Shown: positions 24,012 to 63,694, counted from the first letter of the stretch. The stretch is 64,000 nt of DNA from an uncultured archaeon (GCA_964558645.1 CAZLEV010000007.1:32001-96000), one strand, 5' to 3'. Program-made: numbers and translations. The notes: generated by a model from the letters alone, not told the origin.

Positions 24012-24984
24012 AGTGGGCGGTTCTCCTTTCCATTTTCACTTCTTGAAGCTCAGCTGATTCACGAGCCGTCATGCCTGACCAAGTTACCTGCTTAAGTCCC
24101 TCTCTCCTCGCTGTCTGCACGAGTCTAAGCATTGCTTCTTTCTTCATCAACGGAGAATCCTTGAGAGGATACTCAAGTCCGTATAGCTTGTATTTGTCTT
24201 GACACATCTTGTTGAAAGCCAACAAGTCGTATCTAAGAACATTGGGCATGTATTCCGCAACAAAGGCGGCAATTGCTTGAATGTTCTCTACACTGTCAGT
24301 ATGACCCGGAATCACCGGGGTACGAATCCATGTCGGTATGTCCAAATCTGCGAGAGTCTTTGCATTTCGCAGTATCTTTTCCAGCCCGATACCTGTGTAC
24401 TGTCGGTGTCTAGCATCATCCATTAGCTTGATGTCTAGGAGAACCAGATCTGTCATACTGACAGTTTCCTTCCATACAGCTTCGCTGGCATAGCCTGTCG
24501 TGTCAAGAGCCACATGTATCCCGCGTTGCCTCAATCCACTTGCGATGGCCACAGTGAAATCGTGCTGCAGGAGTGGTTCTCCTCCAGATATTGTAACTCC
24601 TCCCTCAGAGGTTTCAAAGAATGGGGCGTCTCGGGCGAGCTCATCGACAAGGTCTTCGACACTGCGAAGCTTGCCTATGATTTCCATTGCACCTGTGGGG
24701 CAGACATCTTCGCAGCTCCCACAGAGGTTGCAGGCCTTGCAATCTATGAGCATTCCTTCGTCTGCAAACTTTAATGCCTCCTGTGAGCATGCTCGGATGC
24801 AGGCACGATCTCCAATACACCTGGTTGCATTCCATACCACTCGAGGGGTGCTGTCAATCGTTTCTATGTTGTGGCACCAGATGCAGTGAAGTGGACATCC
24901 CTTGAGAAACAGTGTAGTTCTAATGCCTGGCCCGTCCTCTGTAGAGCATCTCTGAATATTGGTGATATAACCTGTTGGCGTCAT
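24004..24984 (-). CDS. Glycyl-radical enzyme activating enzyme (radical SAM with ferredoxin insert)
   Basis: DGPGIRT, CPLHCIWC, ferredoxin-type Cys motifs and GGVTISGGEP. Confidence 0.95.
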   Translation of the reverse strand: MTPTGYITNIQRCSTEDGPGIRTTLFLKGCPLHCIWCHNIETIDSTPRVVWNATRCIGDRACIRACSQEALKFADEGMLIDCKACNLCGSCEDVCPTGAMEIIGKLRSVEDLVDELARDAPFFETSEGGVTISGGEPLLQHDFTVAIASGLRQRGIHVALDTTGYASEAVWKETVSMTDLVLLDIKLMDDARHRQYTGIGLEKILRNAKTLADLDIPTWIRTPVIPGHTDSVENIQAIAAFVAEYMPNVLRYDLLAFNKMCQDKYKLYGLEYPLKDSPLMKKEAMLRLVQTARREGLKQVTWSGMTARESAELQEVKMERRTAHCG

Positions 24985-27383
24985 CAGATGCTATGCTCCG
25001 TTCTTGCTATGATTTCTTCTTGCAATTCTCTGCCAATCTGTGTGAAGTATGCATTATACCCTGTCACTCGGACAAGCAAGTTGGAGTACTTCTCTGGATT
25101 CTTCTGTGCATCTCGCAATGTCTGTGAGTCAACGATGTTCACCTGCAAGGCGGTTCCGCCCACTTCATTGTATGCCCTTAAGAGGGCGGCCAGTTTCTCT
25201 ATGTGTTCCGGTGACCGTACCATAGATGGACTCAGAGTTATCGTGTGCGATGCACCGTTTGGAACGGTTTCCAGGTTCAGTTTCCCTACCGAACGAATTG
25301 AGGCTGTTGGCCCCTCGGAATCCATCCCTTGGACAGCTCCCACTCCTCCTGAGAGGAACTCACCCCTCCGTCTACCGTCAGGAGTAGCTGCTGTCAACGG
25401 TGCAAGAGGGATGTAGTAGTTCCAACTCAGATAGCCTGCCCTGTACCGCCGCCCGGTGAATGGGTTTTGACGCTTGAACGCCTCGTTGGCCCAGAAGACT
25501 GACAAATCTCGAGCGATGTCATCAACATAGTCATCATCGTTCCCGAATTTGGGTGCTTTTGAACGCAGAAGCTGGCGAATGTCCTCATACCCTTCGAAGT
25601 TTGTCTTTATGGCTTCGACCAGCTCATTCATCGTTAGTCTTTGCCTCTCAAAGACCATCTTCCTCACCGCGGCTACAGAATCCGCAAGTGTAGCAATTCC
25701 CATCCCCTCTAGGGTATTGAAGTTCCAGTCTGTACCACCTTGATTTACATCCTTCCCTCGTTCTGCGCAGCCGTCCAGGAGAGCACTGAGATATGGAGTT
25801 GGTTGATACTTGGACCGTATCGTGTCTGCCATATTTCCACACTCTGTGAGGAGTTCGATGAGTCTGACTAGCTGCACCTTGACCGCCTCCAAGAACTCTT
25901 CATAGTCTGTAAAGGTGGCTGGATTCGCTGTCTTCTGCCCTATTCTCTTGCCTGTTCTCATATCTCTCCCTTGATTCAGGGCTAACTCAACAGCTTTTGC
26001 TAGGTTGATATTGACGTCTACGGTATCAGATCGGTCATTTCCCTGCATAGTGTTTTCAAGGCATCCCACAATACCGTAGTTCCAAGCCTCTTCTCTCGGC
26101 ACGCCTTGCCATACCATTCCCTCAATACTGTGCTCATCAAAATTCATGAGGAATGGAGAGCCTTGTGCCTGAGAGAGAATCTCTGCTATTCTGTACATGA
26201 AGTCATCAGGTGTGTTCCTGTGAATCCTCACATTTGGCTTGGGCTCAAGAAGGTTGATTTCTTCGATTACCTCCAGTGCTAACCAAGTCAAGTCATTGGT
26301 AAGATCTTCACCTCTAGGGCCGCACCCACTCAGAGTCATTAGCTGACCGAAACTTGAGTTGATTCCTTGATTGATACCCAGCCTACCTTGATAGTCATAT
26401 ACGTAGTTGTGCTTTATCCAATAGCAGTGTAGCAGTTCCTTGGCCCAATCTCGAGTAATGCTGCCGGATTCTATATCCCTCTTGTAGAAGGGGTACATGT
26501 ATTGATCCCACCGACCGAAAGAAAGCCCTGCTCCAGGATAGGATTCTGCAGCCATCACCAGCATGTGTGTGAACCAGAGTGATTGCAGCGCCTCCCAGAA
26601 CGTTTCAGGAGGTTCCCATGGCACCTTTCTGCATATCTGTGCAATCTCTTCCAACTCCCTTCTTCTTTGAGGATTCTGTTCATCATCTGCTAAATCAGAA
26701 GCCTTCTGTGAATAACGCTGAGCGAGGTTTCTTGCCGTCTTGCAGTTCAGAATGAGAGCATCTATGAACTCCCTGTGCTCGTCGGAGAGAATCGTGTCTT
26801 TGAGACCCTCATACTCCTGAACTAATCCCTTGAATCCTTTCACAAGGACCTTTTCATAGTTGGGAATCACATGCCCTGGTACTGAGGCTGCGGTGCCAGC
26901 TCCTACATTGTTTAGCCTGCTGGCCTCTTCGAACCACCTTGCCATCTCTTTGTTCCTTTGCTTGGTTTCAGTCTTATTGAGGCAGCGGGAAAGGGCAGTA
27001 TTGAAATTGAATCCGACAATGAGCTCCCCGTCAATAATGCTCACCGGCATGTATCTCGTCATGACCTCGTCGAAGAAAACCGCTCTGCGCATCTGAAGGG
27101 TCTGTTCCCAGAATTCGCTGGGGAGTTCAACCTCCACTGCCATTGCCTTGAGTGTTGCATCAATCGATGGGAAGAAGGGGTAGATGGCAGGTTCATTTGC
27201 CCAGTCATGATACGAGTAGACTTCATCCCACTCAGAACCAGTAGTGAAAGAGTATGGTTCATTGGTGAGGTCTCTTTCATGGAAAGAGTAGAAATGGTCT
27301 CTGAGTTTTGTGACACGGTCTGAGAGACTCGGCGAGGGCGACCAGATTTCAACTCGTTCTTCAGGGCCTTCTTCCACTGTCAT
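24984..27383 (-). CDS. Glycyl radical enzyme (PFL2/eliminase-like, substrate unknown)
   Basis: 799 aa; single-Cys loop GCLE; glycyl motif LLVRVTGY; SFGRWDQY and PKFGNDDDYVD. Confidence 0.93.
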   Translation of the reverse strand: MTVEEGPEERVEIWSPSPSLSDRVTKLRDHFYSFHERDLTNEPYSFTTGSEWDEVYSYHDWANEPAIYPFFPSIDATLKAMAVEVELPSEFWEQTLQMRRAVFFDEVMTRYMPVSIIDGELIVGFNFNTALSRCLNKTETKQRNKEMARWFEEASRLNNVGAGTAASVPGHVIPNYEKVLVKGFKGLVQEYEGLKDTILSDEHREFIDALILNCKTARNLAQRYSQKASDLADDEQNPQRRRELEEIAQICRKVPWEPPETFWEALQSLWFTHMLVMAAESYPGAGLSFGRWDQYMYPFYKRDIESGSITRDWAKELLHCYWIKHNYVYDYQGRLGINQGINSSFGQLMTLSGCGPRGEDLTNDLTWLALEVIEEINLLEPKPNVRIHRNTPDDFMYRIAEILSQAQGSPFLMNFDEHSIEGMVWQGVPREEAWNYGIVGCLENTMQGNDRSDTVDVNINLAKAVELALNQGRDMRTGKRIGQKTANPATFTDYEEFLEAVKVQLVRLIELLTECGNMADTIRSKYQPTPYLSALLDGCAERGKDVNQGGTDWNFNTLEGMGIATLADSVAAVRKMVFERQRLTMNELVEAIKTNFEGYEDIRQLLRSKAPKFGNDDDYVDDIARDLSVFWANEAFKRQNPFTGRRYRAGYLSWNYYIPLAPLTAATPDGRRRGEFLSGGVGAVQGMDSEGPTASIRSVGKLNLETVPNGASHTITLSPSMVRSPEHIEKLAALLRAYNEVGGTALQVNIVDSQTLRDAQKNPEKYSNLLVRVTGYNAYFTQIGRELQEEIIARTEHSI

Positions 27384-27555
27384 CGTTCTAACACCGACTG
27401 AACGTAGGCCTTCATGTCAAAGAGAGTAATAAGGATGGCTCCACGACACTTGCTGTGAAGACATTGACGACTAGGTTGGCCGATTTCTGGATATTGATGG
27501 GCGGAGCGTCATTCTGATAAGCGCCTTTGTCTTTGCTTTTCTTGTGTGAACACCA

Positions 27556-27702
27556 ATGGCTGATTTGAAACTAATTGTGAAAGGCGAGAACATTCCGATG
27601 AACGAGTTCGTGAGTAACATACTCAATGACTTGATGATGTCTTTTCTTACCAATCTCAGGAACGTAGACATGGACAAGATAGACACGATTGAAGTGTCCT
27701 GA
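27556..27702 (+). CDS. 48-aa microprotein resembling the C-terminal extension of MobB
   Basis: Below the ORF-track cutoff: MADLKLIVKGENIPMNEFVSNILNDLMMSFLTNLRNVDMDKIDTIEVS*; ends 26 nt before the AOR gene. Confidence 0.6.
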   Translation: MADLKLIVKGENIPMNEFVSNILNDLMMSFLTNLRNVDMDKIDTIEVS

Positions 27703-27728
27703 GCTGGTCATTACGGAGCTGTAGGATA

Positions 27729-29561
27729 GTGATTCATCATTGTTGGAACGGTAGAGTACTCCAGATAGACCTCACTGACGAAAAGATATCCGAGAAGAAG
27801 ATACAGCCAGATGTGTACGAACGCTTTATCGGCGGGAAAGGTCTGGGAACGTATCTGCTCTATACCCTTGTCGGCGAGGGCATCGACCCTCTCGGTCCCG
27901 AGAACTCTCTGTTCTTCATGACTGGGCCGTTACAGGGTCTGAGAGCTCCGAACGTTGGGCGATGGAGTCTTCTTACCAAGTCGCCCCTTACCGGACTGTA
28001 TCTTGACAGTCACTGTGGAGGAGCTCTTGGTCGTGAGATTAAGAACGCAGGATACGACGCTGTGCAAATCACCGGCAAAGCGCAGAAACCTGTTGTTCTC
28101 AAGATCAAGGATGACCAAGTGGACTTTCGGAATGCTGGGGACCTGTGGGGCAAGGGCACGGTAAAGACCACCCGCATACTTGCTGACGAATCTGATGCTC
28201 GCGGCTCGGTATATGCTATCGGTCCAGCCGGAGAGAAGCTGGTGAAGTTTGCAACAGGATGCTGTGAACTGGCTCATCAGACAGGCAGAGGGGGTGCAGG
28301 TGCTGTGATGGGTTCCAAGAACCTGAAGGGCGTAGTCGCAAGAGGAACAGGAGAGGTTGATGCAGCAGATCCAGATGCTCTAAGAGATGTAAACCGAGAA
28401 GTAGCAAAGACATGGTCCGACAAAGAGAATTACGGTTTCAAGGATTTGGGTACAGGTTTCTTACCTGAAGTGGCTAATGGCTTGGGCCAGTTTCCTTCTC
28501 GAAATTGGCGGAGTGGATACTTCGAGCATGTAGAGGGTCTTGACATGTACGATGCTGAGAAGAAGTATGGGACGGGTGCACATCATTCTTGCCCGCACTG
28601 CATTATGCGTTGCACAAATGCATACAATACCGAGGACCCCTTTGGTTCTGGTGACCAAGTGGAATCAATGGTTGAGTATGAAACCCTTGGACTAATGGGA
28701 GGAAACTTGGGAATTGATGACATCCAGGCTGTCTTAAAGCTGAACTACATCTCAGACGACTACGGTGTTGACACAATCAGTGCCGGCGGTGTCATAGGGT
28801 TTGCAATGGAGGCCTACGAACGGGGTCTTATAACGGAAGAAGAGCTGGGATTTGAACTGACATTCGGTGATGGAAACGCTGCAATGGAGGCCCTCCGTCT
28901 TATTGTTTCAAGAGAAGGGTTCGGAGATGTTCTTGCCGAAGGTGTCAAGGCTGCAGCAGAGAGTATAGGGGATCCTGCTCAGGACCTGGCTGTTCATGTC
29001 AAGGGATTGGACTGCGCTGCATGGGATCCGAGGGGTCGAAGAGGCATGGGTCTATCATATGCAACTGCTGATGTTGGTGCAAGCCACCTAAGAGGCTGGC
29101 CAGCCACAACAGAACCCCCTAATGCTTCAGCTGTGGATCTTGTCGAGTCAATGGTGAGGGCTCGCAACGAAAAAGTCTTCACTGATTCTCTTGTGGTCTG
29201 CCACTTCACATATCATCTGCCTATGTCCTTTGAGCAGAAAATCCGTCTCCTGAATGGCGCAAGTGGTTTGAGCTATGATGAACATAGCATCATGGAGTTT
29301 GCAGAACGCGTTGCTACTCTTAGTCGCCTCTTCAACTACCGTGAAGGAATCACGCGACAAGATGATAGACTGCCTAAAAAATTCTGGACTCCGCAAGACC
29401 AAGGCCCACGAGAGGGTCTCAAGTCCTTTGTCGACAAAGAAGACTTCGAGAAAAGCCTTGACCGATTCTACGAGCTCCGCGGATGGAACGAGAATGGGGT
29501 GCCTGAGCATGACAGGATTCGCCAACTCGGACTATCCGATATCGTTGAAAAACGGGAATAG
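27729..29561 (+). CDS. aor: Tungsten-dependent aldehyde:ferredoxin oxidoreductase family
   Basis: KSPLTG, GRGGAGAVMGSKNLK, CPHCIMRC, EYET, DDYGVDTIS, HVKG and DSLVVC motifs. Confidence 0.93.
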   Translation: MIHHCWNGRVLQIDLTDEKISEKKIQPDVYERFIGGKGLGTYLLYTLVGEGIDPLGPENSLFFMTGPLQGLRAPNVGRWSLLTKSPLTGLYLDSHCGGALGREIKNAGYDAVQITGKAQKPVVLKIKDDQVDFRNAGDLWGKGTVKTTRILADESDARGSVYAIGPAGEKLVKFATGCCELAHQTGRGGAGAVMGSKNLKGVVARGTGEVDAADPDALRDVNREVAKTWSDKENYGFKDLGTGFLPEVANGLGQFPSRNWRSGYFEHVEGLDMYDAEKKYGTGAHHSCPHCIMRCTNAYNTEDPFGSGDQVESMVEYETLGLMGGNLGIDDIQAVLKLNYISDDYGVDTISAGGVIGFAMEAYERGLITEEELGFELTFGDGNAAMEALRLIVSREGFGDVLAEGVKAAAESIGDPAQDLAVHVKGLDCAAWDPRGRRGMGLSYATADVGASHLRGWPATTEPPNASAVDLVESMVRARNEKVFTDSLVVCHFTYHLPMSFEQKIRLLNGASGLSYDEHSIMEFAERVATLSRLFNYREGITRQDDRLPKKFWTPQDQGPREGLKSFVDKEDFEKSLDRFYELRGWNENGVPEHDRIRQLGLSDIVEKRE

Positions 29562-29569
29562 TGGCCGTG

Positions 29570-30007
29570 TTAGCCGAAGAGACGTGCTTTGAAGTCTTTT
29601 CGCAGTAACACCTCATGTCCTTCCTCAGTAAACCCTGCGTCTGTGTAGAGCTGGACCACATCAGCTCGCTCTGTATTAACGGCAGTTTGGAGGGCTCGTA
29701 GTCCCCTCTCTTCTGCAAGGGAAACGGCCTTCTGAAGAAGTGCGGGACCAACAGTCGAAGATTCAAGGGGGTCATCTATCTCGAAGTTACGGATGACTCC
29801 AACCTTCCCTAATCTGGAATCACTCTGAATGTCCAACTTCAGAGCAGCTACCACAACGTTATCAGCTGCAGCGATGATGAACATGGTTTCGCTAACTGAG
29901 CCGGTCCTTGCAAGCGAGAGTCCCTGAAAGTCAAGTCCCTCTCGATTGTAGAACTGCTCCAGTGCAGACCTGTCTCTTGCGGTTGCGAGTCGAATGTCGA
30001 ACTTCAT
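29570..30007 (-). CDS. GNAT-family N-acetyltransferase-like protein
   Basis: IRLATARD start, VGPALLQKAVSLAEERG and QLYTDAGF; ATG 30007 chosen. The acetyl-CoA motif A looks degenerate. Confidence 0.75.
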   Translation of the reverse strand: MKFDIRLATARDRSALEQFYNREGLDFQGLSLARTGSVSETMFIIAAADNVVVAALKLDIQSDSRLGKVGVIRNFEIDDPLESSTVGPALLQKAVSLAEERGLRALQTAVNTERADVVQLYTDAGFTEEGHEVLLRKDFKARLFG

Positions 30008-30091
30008 AGCAATGAAACCCCAAAGGATTGAAACCTTTAGTCCGCTCACTCATCGATAAAGCTTCTGAATTAGGTTAGAATGGGCAGAGCA

Positions 30092-30850
30092 CTATCGGAT
30101 TACATCGTATATCTTGTCCATGCATTGGGCGAACTCGCTGTCTGGGTGTCTTAGGATAACAACGTATCTGCTGCCTGCCTCGATGAGAATGGGAAGCAGG
30201 GGTATTATCGTTGCGACTTTAGTTTTGAATTTCTGTTGGACCTCTTTGATGATGGCTTCATCCTCGTAGATTTTTGGCTTCTTGTTGACTATGATCTTGA
30301 TATCGGGGACCTGCAGCTTTCTGGCAACGCTCAGTGTTGCTGCTGTGCCTAGAAGGTCCTGTTCATCGATTCGTGCGACCACAAATAGGAAGTCAGCTGT
30401 TGCCATTGAAAGGAGAGTTTCTCTATCAAGCCCAGGATGAGTATCAATGATCAGGTAGTCGAGATCCTTCTTCTCTATTACCTCATTGAAACCGTTTCTC
30501 AAATCACTGACTTCGTAGCCTTCGCGAAGGATTCGAGTTATATCTGAGGCGGTCATCGAACTCGGAATGAGGAAGAGCTTGCCGTTCTTGATGCGCTGTT
30601 GTTTTGTGATATCCAGACATGCATCGGTAATGTCACACTCGCCCCGTAGGTAGTCATTCAGAGTGTACTTCTGTTTCTGTCTGCCTAGACCAAAAATGAC
30701 GTGGATCCCTGGAGATGCCATGTCCGTATCCATTACTGCGACCCGCTTTCCATCAAGGGCTGCGGCTGCGGCAAGATTTGCGGCAATGTTACTCTTGCCC
30801 GTACCTCCTCTAAAGGAATGGATGCTGACTATCTGTCCAACCATCTTCAT
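30092..30850 (-). CDS. MinD/ParA-family ATPase
   Basis: Deviant Walker A SFRGGTGKS, VMDTD and YLIIDTHPGL. Confidence 0.92.
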   Translation of the reverse strand: MKMVGQIVSIHSFRGGTGKSNIAANLAAAAALDGKRVAVMDTDMASPGIHVIFGLGRQKQKYTLNDYLRGECDITDACLDITKQQRIKNGKLFLIPSSMTASDITRILREGYEVSDLRNGFNEVIEKKDLDYLIIDTHPGLDRETLLSMATADFLFVVARIDEQDLLGTAATLSVARKLQVPDIKIIVNKKPKIYEDEAIIKEVQQKFKTKVATIIPLLPILIEAGSRYVVILRHPDSEFAQCMDKIYDVIR

Positions 30851-30853
30851 TCA

Positions 30854-32140
30854 TCACCTTATGTATCGAAGTGCCCTGGTTGTTTCCCAAGTCACGTGTT
30901 TCCCGAGCTTGCGAAGAACCTCAATGATTCTGTTGACCGGGATAGAAGTCCGTGATGATATTTCGCTGAGCGACAGGCTACCATCACAGTACTTCCATAT
31001 CGAATCAATGATGTCGTAGTCTCTCTTAGGGATTCCTATGACCTCTAGGTATGCAGCAAATCTGTCGTCTCGTTCGTCCATAACAGGAAAGAGCTTGGCT
31101 ATATGAGCCACACCTCTGGAGATGAGAGTTGCCAAAGCCTCAGTGAGGTTGCCTTTTGGAATTGAGTTTTCTTCGGCTATCTCACCTACCGTCTTCTTAC
31201 CATCTGCAGTCTTTAGAATCTTGATAGCTGCAGATTGTGAAGCTTCAGACATATTATCAAACAAGGCTCTTGAACGCGAAAGTGCTTCATCAGTCGGGAC
31301 AAGAAGCTCAATGGTATCGTGAGGATAGAATGAGCCGGGCTCGTCTATCTGTTCCTTGTGAATCAGACGCATCTTGCAGAAATCGACTCTGGAGATCAGT
31401 TTCATGAAGGGTTCAGTAAGCTTCCGGTAGACCTCAATTTCTTGACCTGCCCTGACAACAAATGTGCAGACTCCGACATCACACTTAGCGATGAAGAAAG
31501 AAGAAACTGGATCTAGGCTGGTGTGGACTACCATCAGGTTCTTCTCAACCCCTTTCTCATTCAGGCTGTGAAGCAAATCAAGAATCGCCTCCAGTTCATA
31601 TGCTCGGAGATTGGATACAACGATATGCCCATCCCATGTCAAGAGTCCGCCTCGTAAGATGCTGTCATGGGCTTCAATTTCAGATAAGACAACTTTCATC
31701 TGTCGAAGCTCTTCAGGAGGAAGCAGAGCTGTGTCATATCTCCGTGCTAGACTTGGGATTCCATCGAACTTCTGCAGTGTCATCTCGACAGAATCAGTGA
31801 ACATTCTGAAGTTCTTGAAGAAGACATCTTCGTTCTTGAGTTGAGCATAGAACTTACTCACAAACTGCTCTGCCAACTCTTCAAGAATAACACGATAAAT
31901 CTCTGCACTGTCGTCCTGAGAAACGAGCGCAATGAAGAACAAGTCTCCTTTCTTGACCCACACAAACTTGCTCTCTGCAAATGACATCATAGTCAGTTGC
32001 TCTTCGCCTGTCTGCTCTACCAGCAGACCAATAGCTGACAGGAACGCGCTAACGATTTCATCGAGTTTCTTTGTTCCATAGACGCTGTAGTGGAAAAGTG
32101 GAATTCCCGAATCACGCAAAATCACGATCTCTTTGACCAC
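30854..32140 (-). CDS. Longin + roadblock/LC7 + tandem winged-helix protein
   Basis: N-terminal ILRDSGIPLFHY...IVSAFLSAI (longin); middle VLSEIEAHDSILRGGLLTWDGHIVVSNL (roadblock); two wHTH (ADGKKTVGEIAE, YCDGSLSLSEISS). Confidence 0.75.
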   Translation of the reverse strand: MVKEIVILRDSGIPLFHYSVYGTKKLDEIVSAFLSAIGLLVEQTGEEQLTMMSFAESKFVWVKKGDLFFIALVSQDDSAEIYRVILEELAEQFVSKFYAQLKNEDVFFKNFRMFTDSVEMTLQKFDGIPSLARRYDTALLPPEELRQMKVVLSEIEAHDSILRGGLLTWDGHIVVSNLRAYELEAILDLLHSLNEKGVEKNLMVVHTSLDPVSSFFIAKCDVGVCTFVVRAGQEIEVYRKLTEPFMKLISRVDFCKMRLIHKEQIDEPGSFYPHDTIELLVPTDEALSRSRALFDNMSEASQSAAIKILKTADGKKTVGEIAEENSIPKGNLTEALATLISRGVAHIAKLFPVMDERDDRFAAYLEVIGIPKRDYDIIDSIWKYCDGSLSLSEISSRTSIPVNRIIEVLRKLGKHVTWETTRALRYIR

Positions 32141-32218
32141 TTTGCCACGACCTTAAGCGCTATTGTGTCCCTTGAGCTTTGCCTGCATATAACTGCTATC
32201 AGTGGATGAGAGCCGATT

Positions 32219-33133
32219 CTACTCGATTCCCCAATCATAATCAAGAGTGTTCTGGACTCCCATCAGTTTCCAGTCAACTTCGTCCCCCAGTTTTTCAAGC
32301 ACTTCATGCATGCGTTCTGATGTTACTCCAAGTCTTTCCGATATTTCTTCGATTGTTCTCTGCCCATTGCAGAGAGGCTTAGCCCGTTTCAAGAGCTGGT
32401 AGTCCTTTCTTGGTAGACCTACCAGGTCGAGATAAGCATCGAAGCGAGAATCATTCTCTTTGAGAAGCGGGCACAGTCTCATTACCTCCAAGACGCCCCA
32501 AATCGCCAAGTACTCGATGATTTCCGTTACCTCTTCCTCTTCTATACCAATGCGCACACTGATGGCATTGATCGTTGAACGCCCGTCGATTGCATCAAGA
32601 ACACTACTGCCTGTTCCAGCAAAATCCCTATGAAACTCGTCCAAGAGGCCTTCTGAATCGATTGCTGCTTGCAGCACATCTCTCCTGATAATAGGTACCA
32701 CAAAAGAGGTAAGACTTGATGTTGTTTTTAGGACTCCTTGATAGAATGTCATGGCACGTCTGACTTCGTACTCAAAGTCTCCGAACTTCTGCGCTATGCA
32801 GTTATCGCCATTGAGTTCTGCTCTGTATCTCGTTATGAACTTCCGGCTCAGGTCCTTGAGAACTGCTCTTAGCAGCCTCATCGGAGCTCCCGTGTCTACC
32901 AGAAACAGGAATATTTCTTCCTGTTCAGGTTGTTCATAGAGAACTTCGGAACCTTGGAAAGAGAGACTCTGAACAGATTTTTCGCCAAACTCGGCGGCGA
33001 AGCTCGATATGGCGGACAGAAACCCAGACAGCAGTTCATCAAGGCGTCGGATACTCGTGGGGGAGTAGTGGAAGATTGGTACACCGCCTGCGGTAATGAC
33101 CATGAACTCTTGAATCTTCAGTCTGTTTGCCAA
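32219..33133 (-). CDS. Longin + tandem winged-helix protein (NPRL2-like architecture), paralogue of the adjacent gene
   Basis: VITAGGVPIFHY...LLSGFLSAISSF (longin); IDGRSTINAIS and CNGQRTIEEIS wHTH. Shares DxRFxAYLxxxGxPxxDY with 30854..32140. Confidence 0.75.
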   Translation of the reverse strand: MANRLKIQEFMVITAGGVPIFHYSPTSIRRLDELLSGFLSAISSFAAEFGEKSVQSLSFQGSEVLYEQPEQEEIFLFLVDTGAPMRLLRAVLKDLSRKFITRYRAELNGDNCIAQKFGDFEYEVRRAMTFYQGVLKTTSSLTSFVVPIIRRDVLQAAIDSEGLLDEFHRDFAGTGSSVLDAIDGRSTINAISVRIGIEEEEVTEIIEYLAIWGVLEVMRLCPLLKENDSRFDAYLDLVGLPRKDYQLLKRAKPLCNGQRTIEEISERLGVTSERMHEVLEKLGDEVDWKLMGVQNTLDYDWGIE

Positions 33134-33277
33134 TAGCAGGGCACCACTGAGAGGGTTCCAACATATGTGATTTTAAGCTATGGTATTCGTCCCTTCTTGG
33201 ATGTATTGCCGAGAATCGGTAGGAATCGGCTTATTAGACGGGACGCTTGCAAGATATCTCGTTGTTCGGTGAGGAAG

Positions 33278-34882
33278 ATGCTTGAATATCGCCGCTTTCC
33301 GTGGAGGACTACATTCTACTACTTGCTCTATGCACCGGTTCTGTCCTACTTCTTATCGGTCATTGGTCGTCTTATGGATGCAACTCTGTTTTATTTCGAT
33401 TCTGGCCAACACTTGTATCTTCTAGGAATATCTTCAGCATGTGGGGCTCTTGGACTGCTCGCCAGTGCAATGGTAGTTGACAGAACTCGAAAGACCGACT
33501 TACTCATGATAGTAGCATCCCTCTTTCCCTTGGGACTTGGAATGGCGATTTCGATTCTGGGTTCACCAAGTACTCACAGCCCTTCGATTGAATATGCTTT
33601 GGCCGGATCCGTCTTCTTCGGTCTGTGCCTGCTGCTTGTAAGCTGGACCAATCAGCTTAATGAGACCGTGGTTGTTCGATTCAGGGGGCGTATTGCTGCT
33701 TTTTTCCTGTTCCTCTCATTGCTGATTCTGTTTATTTACAATCTTCTCGGCCTAACGGAAGTCATAATCGAGGTCTTTGGAACTCCGTTGATAGAAACCG
33801 TGGCCACAGTATCTGTGTTTATTGCAGCAGCCTTCAGACCGTGGACGTGGGCGCATCATCCGCTCGCCGTGAGGGGTAAGACATCTGGGTACTTCTTCCC
33901 GATGGTTCTAATTCTAGGTGCACACATTCTATGGTACTTCTCGACGAAGAGTAACGTGGCAGCCCTGTTTGAATTCACAGGGGAATCCTGGTCGGGATCT
34001 ATTGCCATCGATTCAGACTGGAGTCTCTACCAACCACTGATGCTCGGTGTGGGTATCATTGTGGCAGGTTTACTTGCAGATACAAAGGGCCGCAAGTCCG
34101 CCTTCAGTTTCGCCGTTCTCTTGATGGGAATGCTTGCCATCTTCGGGTCTGCAACTTATGGCCTGGTTTCTGTTGGCGGGACCACAGAAGTGCTTCTGCG
34201 CTCAGGGACACTCCTCGTTGGAGAGCGATTCGTCGAAGGATATTTTCTGGGGCTTTGTTCTCTCTTGATCTGGGGCGAGATTGGTATGCCCAAGAATCGC
34301 GCTCTGAGACTTTCACTTGTTTGGCTCTTCTTCATTGGCTATATGGCTCTATTCTGGGCTGTTGACCTGCAGGCATTTGGATGGGGAATCCCTGCATGGG
34401 TTACGGAGCTGGGGCGTGAATTTGCAATAGTTCTATCGCTTCTTGGTCTGTACTGGACTGCGAATCTTCCTGAAATCTTGGGACGCGAAATCGAGATGGA
34501 GAAACTCGAACTGGACTTTGATGAAGATCTAGTTGAAGAAACAGTTGAGGCCTTTGTTGAAGCAGATGATTTCGAATCGATAAGAAGCCAACTGGAGATT
34601 ATCGACACTACACCGGACATCAGTGATACTGAGATGTCTGAGATTCTTGGTGAAGATTTCAACGACATTCTTCCCATGCGGAGAATTCCTGGAATCGGGC
34701 CTGCATTAGAAGAGAAGCTCCGAAAGGCAGGTTATGTCTCCGCAGCTCAAATCGCAGGAGAAATCCCATCACGTCTGGCGTCCAAAGTGCAAGGGATGAG
34801 TGAGAAGGGAGCCGACAAAATAATACGGGCTGCAAGAAGCCGTGTCAAGGAAACACTGGACTCTGAGAATCTTACCAAGTGA
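33278..34882 (+). CDS. MFS-like ~12-TM membrane protein with acidic linker and C-terminal helix-hairpin-helix domain
   Basis: LLADTKGRK MFS motif-A-like loop; C-terminal IPGIGPALEEKLRKAGY...VQGMSEKGADKII. ATG 33278 follows GGTGAGG. Confidence 0.75.
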   Translation: MLEYRRFPWRTTFYYLLYAPVLSYFLSVIGRLMDATLFYFDSGQHLYLLGISSACGALGLLASAMVVDRTRKTDLLMIVASLFPLGLGMAISILGSPSTHSPSIEYALAGSVFFGLCLLLVSWTNQLNETVVVRFRGRIAAFFLFLSLLILFIYNLLGLTEVIIEVFGTPLIETVATVSVFIAAAFRPWTWAHHPLAVRGKTSGYFFPMVLILGAHILWYFSTKSNVAALFEFTGESWSGSIAIDSDWSLYQPLMLGVGIIVAGLLADTKGRKSAFSFAVLLMGMLAIFGSATYGLVSVGGTTEVLLRSGTLLVGERFVEGYFLGLCSLLIWGEIGMPKNRALRLSLVWLFFIGYMALFWAVDLQAFGWGIPAWVTELGREFAIVLSLLGLYWTANLPEILGREIEMEKLELDFDEDLVEETVEAFVEADDFESIRSQLEIIDTTPDISDTEMSEILGEDFNDILPMRRIPGIGPALEEKLRKAGYVSAAQIAGEIPSRLASKVQGMSEKGADKIIRAARSRVKETLDSENLTK

Positions 34883-35802: not shown

Positions 35803-36738
35803 TCATTCATCTTTGTTGAGTTGGACCTTCGGATAGTATGCTAGACCTGTCCCTCCAAGGATGTCTACCTTGTCCAGTCGTGCACCACACGCAGCACAAT
35901 CAAGTACAATTCTAGAGTCCGCCGAAGCCGTACTACAGCTGTTGCAGAGTAGTTCCACATCTAAGACATTCAAGTTGGCAACATCGATAGACTTCCTGCA
36001 GTGTTGGCATGCTACCTCAAGTAGATCGTCCACTATCACGGTTTGAGTCCTCTTGCCGCAGTGGGGACAGAAGATTTGGTAAACTTTGTAGAGGTCTACA
36101 CTTCCGCAACTGGGGCACGACAGAAGAACATGGATTTCACTCGAGCCGCATTTTCTACACTGAATCTTTCTGCCATACGTCTTGGCCACAATCACGCCAG
36201 CATTCTCAAGATCACTGAGGGTTCGTGACACTTCTTCATCAGAGCCAGAGAGGCGGTGAGAAGCCTCTGGATATACCTCAACTCCCTTCATGACGCTACG
36301 CGGACGCAAGACCTCAATGTGTCCTTCAATCATGTCCTGCAAGAGCGCCCTGACTTCCTTCTGTTGAAGCAAATCATCTCCAGTTGACCGCTCTAGTAGC
36401 TGGTTAAGTCTCGTGAATGCTCTACTTATCTCGGTGTCCCAATCGGTGCTGTTGAAGTCAATCTCTTCAGAGAGTCTCTGCAGGTTTCTCTCAACGAGCT
36501 GTGGTTTATCGTCCCTGTCTAACAGAACTGCTATGCAGTTGGGAGACTGTAACAAGGATATCACAAGTCCCCTATTCAAGTTGCAGTAGCCGATTCTGGC
36601 CTCTTGGTTGACTCCGTGTCCCATGAAGATCGCAACGGCATCCTCACTACTGAGTTCCTGTTCATCAGGGGGATATGCTCGGCCGACCATGGGTCCCAGA
36701 CGGTCGTCCCACCAGATAGAAAACATTGCCTTTGGCAT
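35803..36738 (-). CDS. uDENN/longin-like N-terminus fused to wHTH and multi-Zn-ribbon (TackOD1-like) domain
   Basis: FSIWWDDRLGPMVGRAYP start; EEVSRTLSDLENAGVI; six CxxC pairs. Confidence 0.6.
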   Translation of the reverse strand: MPKAMFSIWWDDRLGPMVGRAYPPDEQELSSEDAVAIFMGHGVNQEARIGYCNLNRGLVISLLQSPNCIAVLLDRDDKPQLVERNLQRLSEEIDFNSTDWDTEISRAFTRLNQLLERSTGDDLLQQKEVRALLQDMIEGHIEVLRPRSVMKGVEVYPEASHRLSGSDEEVSRTLSDLENAGVIVAKTYGRKIQCRKCGSSEIHVLLSCPSCGSVDLYKVYQIFCPHCGKRTQTVIVDDLLEVACQHCRKSIDVANLNVLDVELLCNSCSTASADSRIVLDCAACGARLDKVDILGGTGLAYYPKVQLNKDE

Positions 36739-63100: not shown

Positions 63101-63694
63101 ATGCATAGATCCGGCGGTAAGCAGTTCAAGATATCTCTCATAGGCGATCCTTATGTAGGAAAGACCAGCATTAGAAGGAGCTATCTCGATAAGGTCTTCA
63201 AGACATCGTATATCCCGACCATTGGTGTTGATTTTGCTCGGAAGTCGATTGTTGTTGATGGGACTCCCGTTCATCTTGTCATATGGGACATAGCAGGGCA
63301 GCCCCTATACGAGAGTCTCCGCAAGCGTTACTATGAAGGGTGCAGAGGTCTCATCATTGTGTACTCTGTGGTTAACCGAGAGTCTTTTGACCATGTAGAA
63401 GATTGGCTGGTTCAGGCACAAGGGTTCATGGGAAAGCTCCCACCCTTGCTTGTCATCGGCAACAAGACTGACCTGCGACTCGATCGCTCTCCCGGAGAGG
63501 TGGTTAGTACTGAAGAAGGGCGGGAATTCTCCAGGATTATCGGGCAACGACTGAGAAGCAAGGCTCTGTTCATCGAGACTTCTGCTCTCACAGGACATAA
63601 CATCGATGAGGCCTTCAACGCTCTCGTGAGAATGATGCTAGAGCAGGTCGGTCATGGGTCACAGGATGCCAAGAGGCCTAGCTTCGAGCTATAG
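63101..63694 (+). CDS. Rab-like small GTPase
   Basis: G1 GDPYVGKTS, G2/RabF1 PTIGVDF, G3 WDIAGQ, G4 GNKTD, G5 ETSAL; ATG 63101 follows GAGGAG. Confidence 0.93.
   Translation: MHRSGGKQFKISLIGDPYVGKTSIRRSYLDKVFKTSYIPTIGVDFARKSIVVDGTPVHLVIWDIAGQPLYESLRKRYYEGCRGLIIVYSVVNRESFDHVEDWLVQAQGFMGKLPPLLVIGNKTDLRLDRSPGEVVSTEEGREFSRIIGQRLRSKALFIETSALTGHNIDEAFNALVRMMLEQVGHGSQDAKRPSFEL

Follow-up and report, generated by a model that had tools for sequence, protein, structure and literature searches.

An NPRL2/NPRL3-like longin protein pair encoded with a variant ParA/MinD-family ATPase in Thorarchaeota

Which kind of NTPase do archaeal proteins resembling NPRL2 and NPRL3 of GATOR1 work with? Longin and roadblock domains are standard platforms for small GTPases, and Asgard copies of both have been cited for early eukaryote-like trafficking and nutrient signalling. 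The question is raised by a window of 64,000 nucleotides (GCA_964558645.1 CAZLEV010000007.1:32001-96000; "the window" is the whole stretch of DNA analysed), part of a Thorarchaeota (Asgard) genome of 3.63 Mb in 37 contigs, in which two longin proteins, here called A and B, are encoded directly before an ATPase of the ParA/MinD family. Comparison of gene order marks the link between A, B and the ATPase as real, old and vertically inherited. The best explanation, to which we give an even chance, is a cellular module of Thor- and Hermodarchaeota in which a dimerising ParA/MinD-family ATPase acts as a switch with a longin-platform partner.

The operon consists of four open reading frames (ORFs), arranged head to tail from 5' to 3' in the order A, B, ATPase and GNAT, with 78 nt between A and B, 3 nt between the stop codon of B and the ATG of the ATPase, and 42 nt between ATPase and GNAT. 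Four co-oriented genes, with the ATPase only 3 nt downstream of B, had been described in an initial annotation of this DNA; both the common minus strand and the gap were confirmed. The operon, its domains and the gene divergent from it are as follows (window coordinates).

32219-33133, minus strand: gene A, an NPRL2-like protein of 304 aa with a longin domain, a helical linker containing one strand, and two winged helices
32714-33133, minus strand: longin domain of A (residues 1-140)
32459-32653, minus strand: winged helix 1 of A (residues 161-225)
32252-32458, minus strand: winged helix 2 of A (residues 226-294)
30854-32140, minus strand: gene B, a paralogue of A of 428 aa with a longin domain, a roadblock domain and two winged helices
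31763-32140, minus strand: longin domain of B (residues 1-126)
31373-31732, minus strand: roadblock/MglB-like insert of B (residues 137-256)
31076-31294, minus strand: winged helix 1 of B (residues 283-355)
30875-31075, minus strand: winged helix 2 of B (residues 356-422)
30092-30850, minus strand: variant ParA/MinD-family ATPase of 252 aa (Pfam AAA_31/ParA/CbiA)
29570-30049, minus strand: GNAT acetyltransferase, which closes the operon (Pfam Acetyltransf_1 above cut-off, E 5.5e-6)
33167-34882, plus strand: MFS-like multi-pass membrane protein with a C-terminal HhH (Pfam HHH_5, E 6.4e-10), divergent from A

Conservation of the link was followed in a synteny set drawn from genome searches; B alone, searched against the contig collection, gave just two close relatives. 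The ATPase gene directly follows B in 27 of the 31 loci of the Thorarchaeaceae (family f1), often with overlapping reading frames, and the MFS-HhH gene adjoins A in all 19 f1 loci with sufficient flank (19/19). At least 14 genera of this family share one gene order: surface protein, a protein joining a longin-like part to a TackOD1 domain, (Mtd), MFS-HhH protein, the divergent A-B-ATPase-GNAT operon, and a convergent tungsten-type aldehyde:ferredoxin oxidoreductase (AOR). Identities to the window across those genera are as follows.

ATPase: 77-84%
AOR: 53-63%
A: 48-60%
B: 43-55%
Mtd: 44-49%
MFS-HhH protein: 40-47%

Among Thor genera, ATPase identity is 77-97%. The GNAT gene is present in most f1 loci and was not found in those of Hermodarchaeota or f2.

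The link extends beyond this family with fewer partner genes. Hermodarchaeota (family f12; 10 loci) and family f2 carry one intact B-type gene (421-430 aa, 28-34% identity), followed by the ATPase (51-57%), and no A; in Hermodarchaeota a divergent gene for an MFS-like protein with HhH lies beside the B-type gene (weak MFS_1 plus HHH_5; L046:2326-3930, minus strand). In four genomes of the Thor genus g12 (G170, G152, G248 and G230) B is gone and A stands straight before the ATPase at the same syntenic locus (L105-L108); the roadblock-bearing paralogue B is, judged by these gene contents, dispensable in that lineage. Because some lineages keep only a B-type protein (Hermodarchaeota, f2) and another only A (g12), an obligate A/B heterodimer is not supported. 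Across 301 Asgard genomes, orthologues of the ATPase (E <= 1e-50) were found in 62 of 76 f1 genomes, in the single f2 genome (1/1), in 17 of 19 f12 genomes, and in one of the other 205. At that lone orthologue (G240, 48% identity) the upstream gene encodes a TPR protein, and nothing B-like is encoded there. Full-length B follows the ATPase orthologues in its distribution over families, and only about seven full-length B-type clusters (at 50% identity) were found among 1.84 billion representative proteins. Continued linkage to the ATPase in relatives, on which the proposed module had been staked beforehand, was found in Thorarchaeaceae, f2 and Hermodarchaeota, and on these comparisons the ATPase link is older than the A/B pair. 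In a few genomes the operon is split by insertions of 1-4 kb, which separate A from B by 3.7 kb in G055 and by 2 kb in G236, and B from the ATPase by 1.2 kb in G016 and by 3.3 kb in G075.

The ATPase had first been called MinD-type; its place in the ParA/MinD family held, and the assignment to true MinD did not, as the NCBIfam MinD models were missed (TIGR01969 minD_arch, 93.8 bits at a cut-off of 201.75; TIGR01968, 65.2 at a cut-off of 212.9) and the signature lysine is replaced by arginine. By its sequence the protein belongs to the ParA/MinD family, yet is no true MinD. Its Walker A motif reads H-S-F-R-G-G-T-G-K-S, and the window and each of the 32 orthologues examined (three families) have R-G-G-T-G-K-S; D41-T-D43 is followed by S-P-G (D-T-D-x-x-S-P-G), and Walker B reads I-I-D-T-H-P-G. 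These ATPase motifs are invariant in 20 orthologues. With D-T-D (for binding of Mg and water), Walker B and the P-loop Lys-Ser intact, the protein is predicted to hydrolyse ATP. Among solved structures it comes nearest to MinD of archaea and of bacteria and to FleN (E 1e-13 to 1e-9), the best match being Archaeoglobus fulgidus MinD-1 (E 1.4e-13); in that alignment the ATPase ends at residue 228 of 263, and a C-terminal membrane-targeting extension is absent.

The closest longer relatives (P0405-P0523; 38-51% identity; sharing SFRGGTGKSN and DTDxxSPG) are cyanobacterial and Chloroflexi fusion proteins, in which the ATPase is joined to cNMP-binding, receiver plus HisKA, PAS, dCache/HAMP, or Ser/Thr kinase plus FHA domains; these fusions mark the subfamily as a signalling-type switch. 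The cyanobacterial and Chloroflexi relatives read DTDIQSPG and form a large class of signalling proteins that is apparently unstudied. The best candidate for a fusion of the Arg-type ATPase with a partner, P0404 (L104:968-2446; ATPase, long helix and wHTH-like tail), was rejected: the fusion needs TGA to be read as Trp, and the tail is without profile similarity to A. On its short metagenome contig P0404 probably represents two genes lying side by side.

Each half of the locus has a published counterpart. A mainly archaeal "ParA-wHTH system", in which a ParA gene is coupled to at least one gene for a winged helix-turn-helix (wHTH) protein, was described by Li, Burroughs and Aravind on 22 October 2026 (bioRxiv 10.64898/2026.10.19.760177). 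According to these authors, the wHTH is sometimes fused to a V4R domain or to a domain called "Profilin-like", a member of the profilin-longin superfamily; an immune role is predicted, in which the system coats invader DNA, and the wHTH proteins evolve rapidly and carry a long N-terminal helix; its ConB2 branch is marked by an Arg in place of the Walker A lysine and by a PG motif behind sensor-1; and ParA genes replace MglA beside MglB in some bacteria (bioRxiv 10.64898/2026.10.19.760177). An NPRL2-like family of Thorarchaeota was published by Liu et al. (bioRxiv 10.1101/2020.10.19.343400; Nature 2021), whose main text makes no mention of ParA or MinD (bioRxiv 10.1101/2020.10.19.343400). The initial annotation had noted correctly that NPRL2-like domains were previously reported in Asgard archaea; its suggestion that the pairing with the ATPase was undescribed does not hold, as ParA with wHTH and longin-superfamily partners was published by Li et al. 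and the NPRL2-like Thor family by Liu et al. The pairing as a type is already published, as a computational prediction; a partner belonging to the NPRL2-like Thor family and a housekeeping-like locus were not found stated in Li et al. What may be new is the joining of the NPRL2-like Thor family to a housekeeping-like ATPase locus, both halves having been described separately before.

The published system supplies a first alternative, namely immunity against selfish elements, in which the winged helices would recognise invader DNA, ParA would coat or intercept it, and the longin-superfamily domain would multimerise; we consider this unlikely here. The Thor locus is like that system in that both are archaeal (the published one mainly so), with ParA beside wHTH genes, some of which carry a profilin/longin-superfamily domain; its ATPase shows the ConB2/PriB2 signatures, with a Walker A that starts in Ser and carries Arg for its lysine, and with PG behind the DxD sensor-1; and A has among its ESM Atlas neighbours an Asgard cluster with V4R, the other fusion partner in the preprint. 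It differs in that each protein has two winged helices and a true longin domain, B a roadblock domain as well, and in its slow evolution and fixed core position. The rapid wHTH evolution and immune behaviour of the ParA-wHTH system were not seen (A 48-60% and B 43-55% identity, with fixed synteny): the metabolic genes around the module change at least as fast as A and B, and faster than the ATPase. Immunity is further opposed by the single syntenic core position held in at least 14 genera, by the presence of the module in two classes and in nearly all reasonably complete genomes of these families, by winged helices that are acidic (A) or neutral (B), and by the surroundings, where no effector, nuclease or defence gene was found nearby and PADLOC gave only a weak generic P-loop match (PDC-M28B).

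A and B had been taken for clear paralogues with shared motifs, and BLASTP agrees: the N-terminal parts align over residues 7-134 of A and 2-128 of B (27% identity, E 5e-18), the C-terminal parts over residues 160-289 and 290-419 (32% identity, E 5e-23), and B has about 160 additional residues in mid-protein. Both translations contain G-x-P-x-F-H-Y, LDE..S.FLSAI and D.RF.AYL...G.P..DY, which are invariant or nearly so across families. In a tree of A, B and the single-copy proteins (longin plus wHTH columns) the single-copy proteins lie closer to A than to B; with long branches and no root, the tree does not fix the order of duplication and roadblock loss.

Folds were assigned from AlphaFold models made from family alignments (A, pLDDT 82.8 and pTM 0.75; B, pLDDT 78.9), whose domains were compared by VIA-align and Foldseek; together with Pfam these models bear out the domain orders first proposed for both proteins. 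In VIA-align, residues 2-134 of A match the longin domain of VAMP7 with Z 15.2 (root-mean-square deviation (rmsd) 2.4, 121 aligned), and residues 1-126 (about) of B with Z 15.1 (rmsd 2.2, 116 aligned); both N-termini score Z of about 15 against VAMP7, Sec22b and SRX, and are in the models true longin domains. The insert of B (about residues 137-256) matches Thermus MglB (Z 12.0, rmsd 2.8, 115 aligned) and Prometheoarchaeum Roadblock3 (Z 11.9) as a roadblock domain. The C-terminal half of each protein contains two winged helices (Pfam TrmB, HTH_47), with TrmB matches in 52/59 and 59/61 members of the two protein families, in addition to HTH_47 and MarR_2. The net charge of these helices is about neutral in B and acidic in A, where each averages -4 over the family.

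These winged helices suggest a second alternative, a transcription switch, in which A and B would be DNA-binding regulators with longin and roadblock sensors and the ATPase an anti-activator, as FleN/FlhG is on FleQ, with targets that might include the MFS-HhH gene. The matches to archaeal regulators (TrmB, HTH_47, MarR_2), the place of FleN among the closest solved relatives of the ATPase, and the short intergenic region between the operon and its divergent, conserved neighbour are consistent with such a switch. The acidic (A) and about neutral (B) charge of the domains argues the other way, as does the binding of protein by such domains in NPRL2/3, their closest structural relatives; no operator-like repeat was seen, though no search aimed at one was made. 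On balance we hold a transcription switch to be improbable.

The initial annotation had further proposed an NPRL2/NPRL3-like longin-wHTH pair, for which Foldseek of A and B and the ESM Atlas uphold the fold and the domain order. Foldseek of A against the PDB fills the first 12 places with chains of NPRL2, NPRL3, Npr2 or Npr3, matched over full length in 340-465 columns (top match 9o5a_H, E 4.3e-8); for B, Fuzzy/Inturned and Mon1/Ccz1 come first (E 6e-9 to 1e-7), followed by NPRL3/NPRL2 (E 8e-7 to 5e-6, about 500 columns). In the ESM Atlas just one named kind of neighbour of A comes from outside the archaea, namely eukaryotic NPR2 clusters, at TM 0.45-0.48 with 212-228 residues aligned across A 1-273. 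No NPRL2/3 was present in the VIA-align top 50 for A and B, lists that are full of single longin domains; because these lists barely test the C-terminal halves, the absence is no evidence against the likeness. By their models A and B share the NPRL2/NPRL3 fold and domain order: as in the GATOR1/SEACIT core pair NPRL2-NPRL3 (Npr2-Npr3), an N-terminal longin domain is followed by helical and winged-helix domains, in two paralogous proteins, which are here encoded together. B differs from NPRL2/3 in its roadblock insert, and the conserved gene partner of A/B is a ParA/MinD-type ATPase, not DEPDC5 or Rag.

At the level of sequence the likeness is much fainter. A profile of the C-terminal halves only places human NPRL2 178-238 first among 177,635 PDB sequences, weakly (E 0.045), and pairs it with the first winged helix; full-length family profiles gave no significant match to PDB sequences (B, MarR at E 0.07; A, NPRL2 at E 0.54). 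Pfam NPR2 (PF06218) and NPR3 (PF03666) did not match A or B at E <= 1, nor any of the 59 + 61 family members at E <= 0.01. HTH_NPRL3 gave sub-threshold matches only, in 4/59 and 7/61 family members (in A, residues 250-285 at E 0.0021), and the generic archaeal TrmB and HTH_47 match the winged helices much oftener. Two NPRL2 motifs had been put forward as parallels; the first is borne out by the alignment of NPRL2 178-238 with winged helix 1, and the second has a counterpart only in the sub-threshold HTH_NPRL3 match of A.

The motifs of a GTPase-activating longin were also sought. Longins of GTPase-activating proteins (GAPs) have a GP motif in the loop before strand 2 (PMC12290439). In the loop preceding strand 2, A has G17-V-P19 (G and P invariant) and B has G12-I-P14, that is, G-x-P and not an adjacent GP. 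At the strand 4-5 hairpin neither longin domain showed a conserved Arg, A reading QPEQEE and B having a conserved Lys64 (a comparison made without residue-level structural alignment to NPRL2), in agreement with the earlier remark that no arginine finger is evident in the longin loop. A scan of the genome with Ras-superfamily and Gtr1/RagA models found no GTPase gene within the operon or adjoining it; neither a DEPDC5-like gene nor a Rag gene is linked to it, though no search aimed at DEPDC5 was made. A and B fail the sequence tests for the NPRL2/NPRL3 family and appear to lack its catalytic motifs, and the label "proto-GATOR1" is not retained: there is no NPR2/NPR3 model match, G-x-P stands for GP, an arginine finger was not found, and the operon has no linked DEPDC5-like or Rag gene. 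The small GTPase gene nearest to the module, about 30 kb away, lies at 63128-63640 on the plus strand of the window (C7:95128-95640; Pfam Ras, E 3.5e-43).

In one evolutionary scenario the NPRL2/NPRL3-type scaffold, a longin platform with winged helices, may first have been a regulator or effector platform for a dimerising SIMIBI ATPase anchored at a transporter-like membrane protein. Thor- and Hermodarchaeota would have kept this ancestral, housekeeping form of a GATOR-like sensing module, built on an ATPase, and the link to Rag GTPases would be a later rewiring on the eukaryotic stem; we think this distinctly unlikely. A GATOR1-like function proper, with an A/B longin heterodimer serving as GAP (or guanine nucleotide exchange factor, GEF) for a small GTPase encoded elsewhere and the ATPase accessory or unrelated, is very unlikely: the full-length matches of A to NPRL2 and NPRL3, the NPR2 clusters, the first rank of NPRL2 178-238, the G-x-P at the GP site of GAP longins and the presence of at least 28 small GTPase genes in the genome are set against the want of a linked GTPase gene (nearest in the window at about 30 kb), a conserved and often overlapping neighbour that is the ATPase, with a phyletic pattern like that of B, a hairpin Arg that was not seen, the missing Pfam NPR2/NPR3 matches, the single-copy lineages, and a B that is at least as near to Mon1/Ccz1 and Fuzzy/Inturned as to NPRL3.

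The vertically inherited cellular module with an ATPase switch is the reading we return to. A cellular function is favoured because of the fixed core position, near-universal presence, slow ATPase, normal-pace partners, lack of a defence context and non-basic winged helices. The switch reading also draws on the linkage to the ATPase and its depth, on the matching family distributions of ATPase and B, on the recurrence of such ATPases beside longin-wHTH genes, on the signalling fusions of the nearest longer ATPase relatives, and on the longin and roadblock platform folds. Several points weigh against it. The ATPase bears the ConB2 signature, although the wording of the preprint could mean either Walker A lysine, and the gene content matches the ParA-wHTH system by its published description, in that A and B lie directly upstream and both combine a longin domain with a pair of winged helices. 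Elsewhere in the genome are at least 28 Ras-superfamily GTPase genes, whose products A/B might serve in trans. Lineages differ in their partner genes, some having B alone, some A alone and some both, so that the stoichiometry is not fixed by the genes; syntenic conservation inside one family may partly stem from low rearrangement and not from function; and DNA binding can be judged only roughly from net charge.

The mechanism proposed for the module starts from what is observed, namely how the genes are arranged, how the proteins fold, ATPase motifs that are intact, core synteny, and a co-inheritance that is deep and near-exclusive; from these we infer that A/B bind the ATPase, in which direction regulation runs, what the winged helices do and which membrane protein takes part, all of which are predicted only. 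The ATPase would alternate between an ATP-bound dimer and an ADP-bound or apo monomer, like ParA, MinD, FlhG and Get3. The longin/roadblock surface of B, of A, or of both would bind one nucleotide state of the ATPase, and the bound A/B would then raise hydrolysis or couple the switch to a target; by analogy, A/B would have the role that MinE, ParB and McdB have for ATPases and that MglB, Ragulator and NPRL2-NPRL3 have for small GTPases. The non-basic winged helices may act as protein-protein modules, as in NPRL2/3. The divergent MFS-HhH protein would be the likeliest membrane anchor or target. A may have arisen as a copy of a B-type protein without the roadblock domain, and A and B may pair.

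Among known systems, MinD-MinE, ParA-ParB, McdA-McdB, SegA-SegB, and FlhG/FleN with FlhF/FleQ are alike in placing a Walker-type dimerising ATPase beside a dedicated partner, which sets the nucleotide cycle or links the ATPase to cargo. The Thor module differs from them in partner folds (longin, roadblock) that otherwise serve small GTPases, in the Arg for the signature Lys, in scores below the MinD cut-offs, and in having no C-terminal membrane-targeting helix. MglA-MglB is alike in that the middle domain of B matches MglB (Z 12.0), and differs in that the adjacent NTPase is ParA/MinD-type, not Ras-like. The tri-longin RabGEFs (Mon1-Ccz1, Fuzzy-Inturned, BLOC-3) resemble B in that its longin and roadblock domains match Fuzzy (Z 14.4, rmsd 7.4, 204 aligned), in that they provide its best Foldseek matches, and in that most family members match Pfam Fuz_longin_1; they differ in that B has two such domains (1-126 and 137-256) and A one, no third longin is present, and B ends in winged helices.

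That in this family the Asgard proteins nearest to NPRL2/NPRL3 of GATOR1 are tied to a ParA/MinD-type ATPase, through gene order and co-inheritance, is a caution against reading them as evidence of a Rag/TOR-like pathway. The set of two or three proteins allows it to be asked whether longin platforms regulate SIMIBI ATPases, and the locus gives a case for testing the immune reading of the ConB2 branch of ParA.

The combination recurs in simpler form. The same genome has two further ParA/MinD-like genes, each followed by a gene for a 203-aa protein with a longin domain and a single wHTH, at distances of 3 and 25 nt.

C23 (L058:1492-2909) and C12 (L059:1459-2913): further ATPase plus longin-wHTH pairs; the Walker A of one reads K-G-G-T-G-K-T, that of the other K-G-G-T-G-R-T

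In K-G-G-T-G-R-T the P-loop Lys is itself replaced by Arg. In other genomes, 13/13 loci of the best full-length homologues of the 203-aa protein have such an ATPase adjacent (four Asgard families); loci that share only the longin domain have no such adjacent ATPase.

Some features of the surroundings are added here. The longest ORF of the GNAT gene has 159 aa, and orthologue alignments begin at about residue 12-15; the true start is probably an internal ATG. In the MFS-HhH protein, an acidic linker stands between the multi-pass membrane part and the HHH_5 tail, and a nucleic-acid-type HhH tail is unusual on a transporter-like protein. Beside the module, 24984-29561 of the window encodes a glycyl-radical enzyme (799 aa, PFL-like) and the AOR, which is convergent with GNAT. 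At 35803-36738 on the minus strand lies the longin-TackOD1 protein (311 aa), with a longin-like N-terminus, several zinc ribbons and a TackOD1 output domain (Pfam, E 1.8e-16); an adjacent G-P precedes the second strand of its longin-like part. This protein stays two to three genes from A in most genera of the Thorarchaeaceae, with 47-57% identity, and agrees with the remark of Liu et al. that NPRL2-like longins are fused to two-component-type domains.

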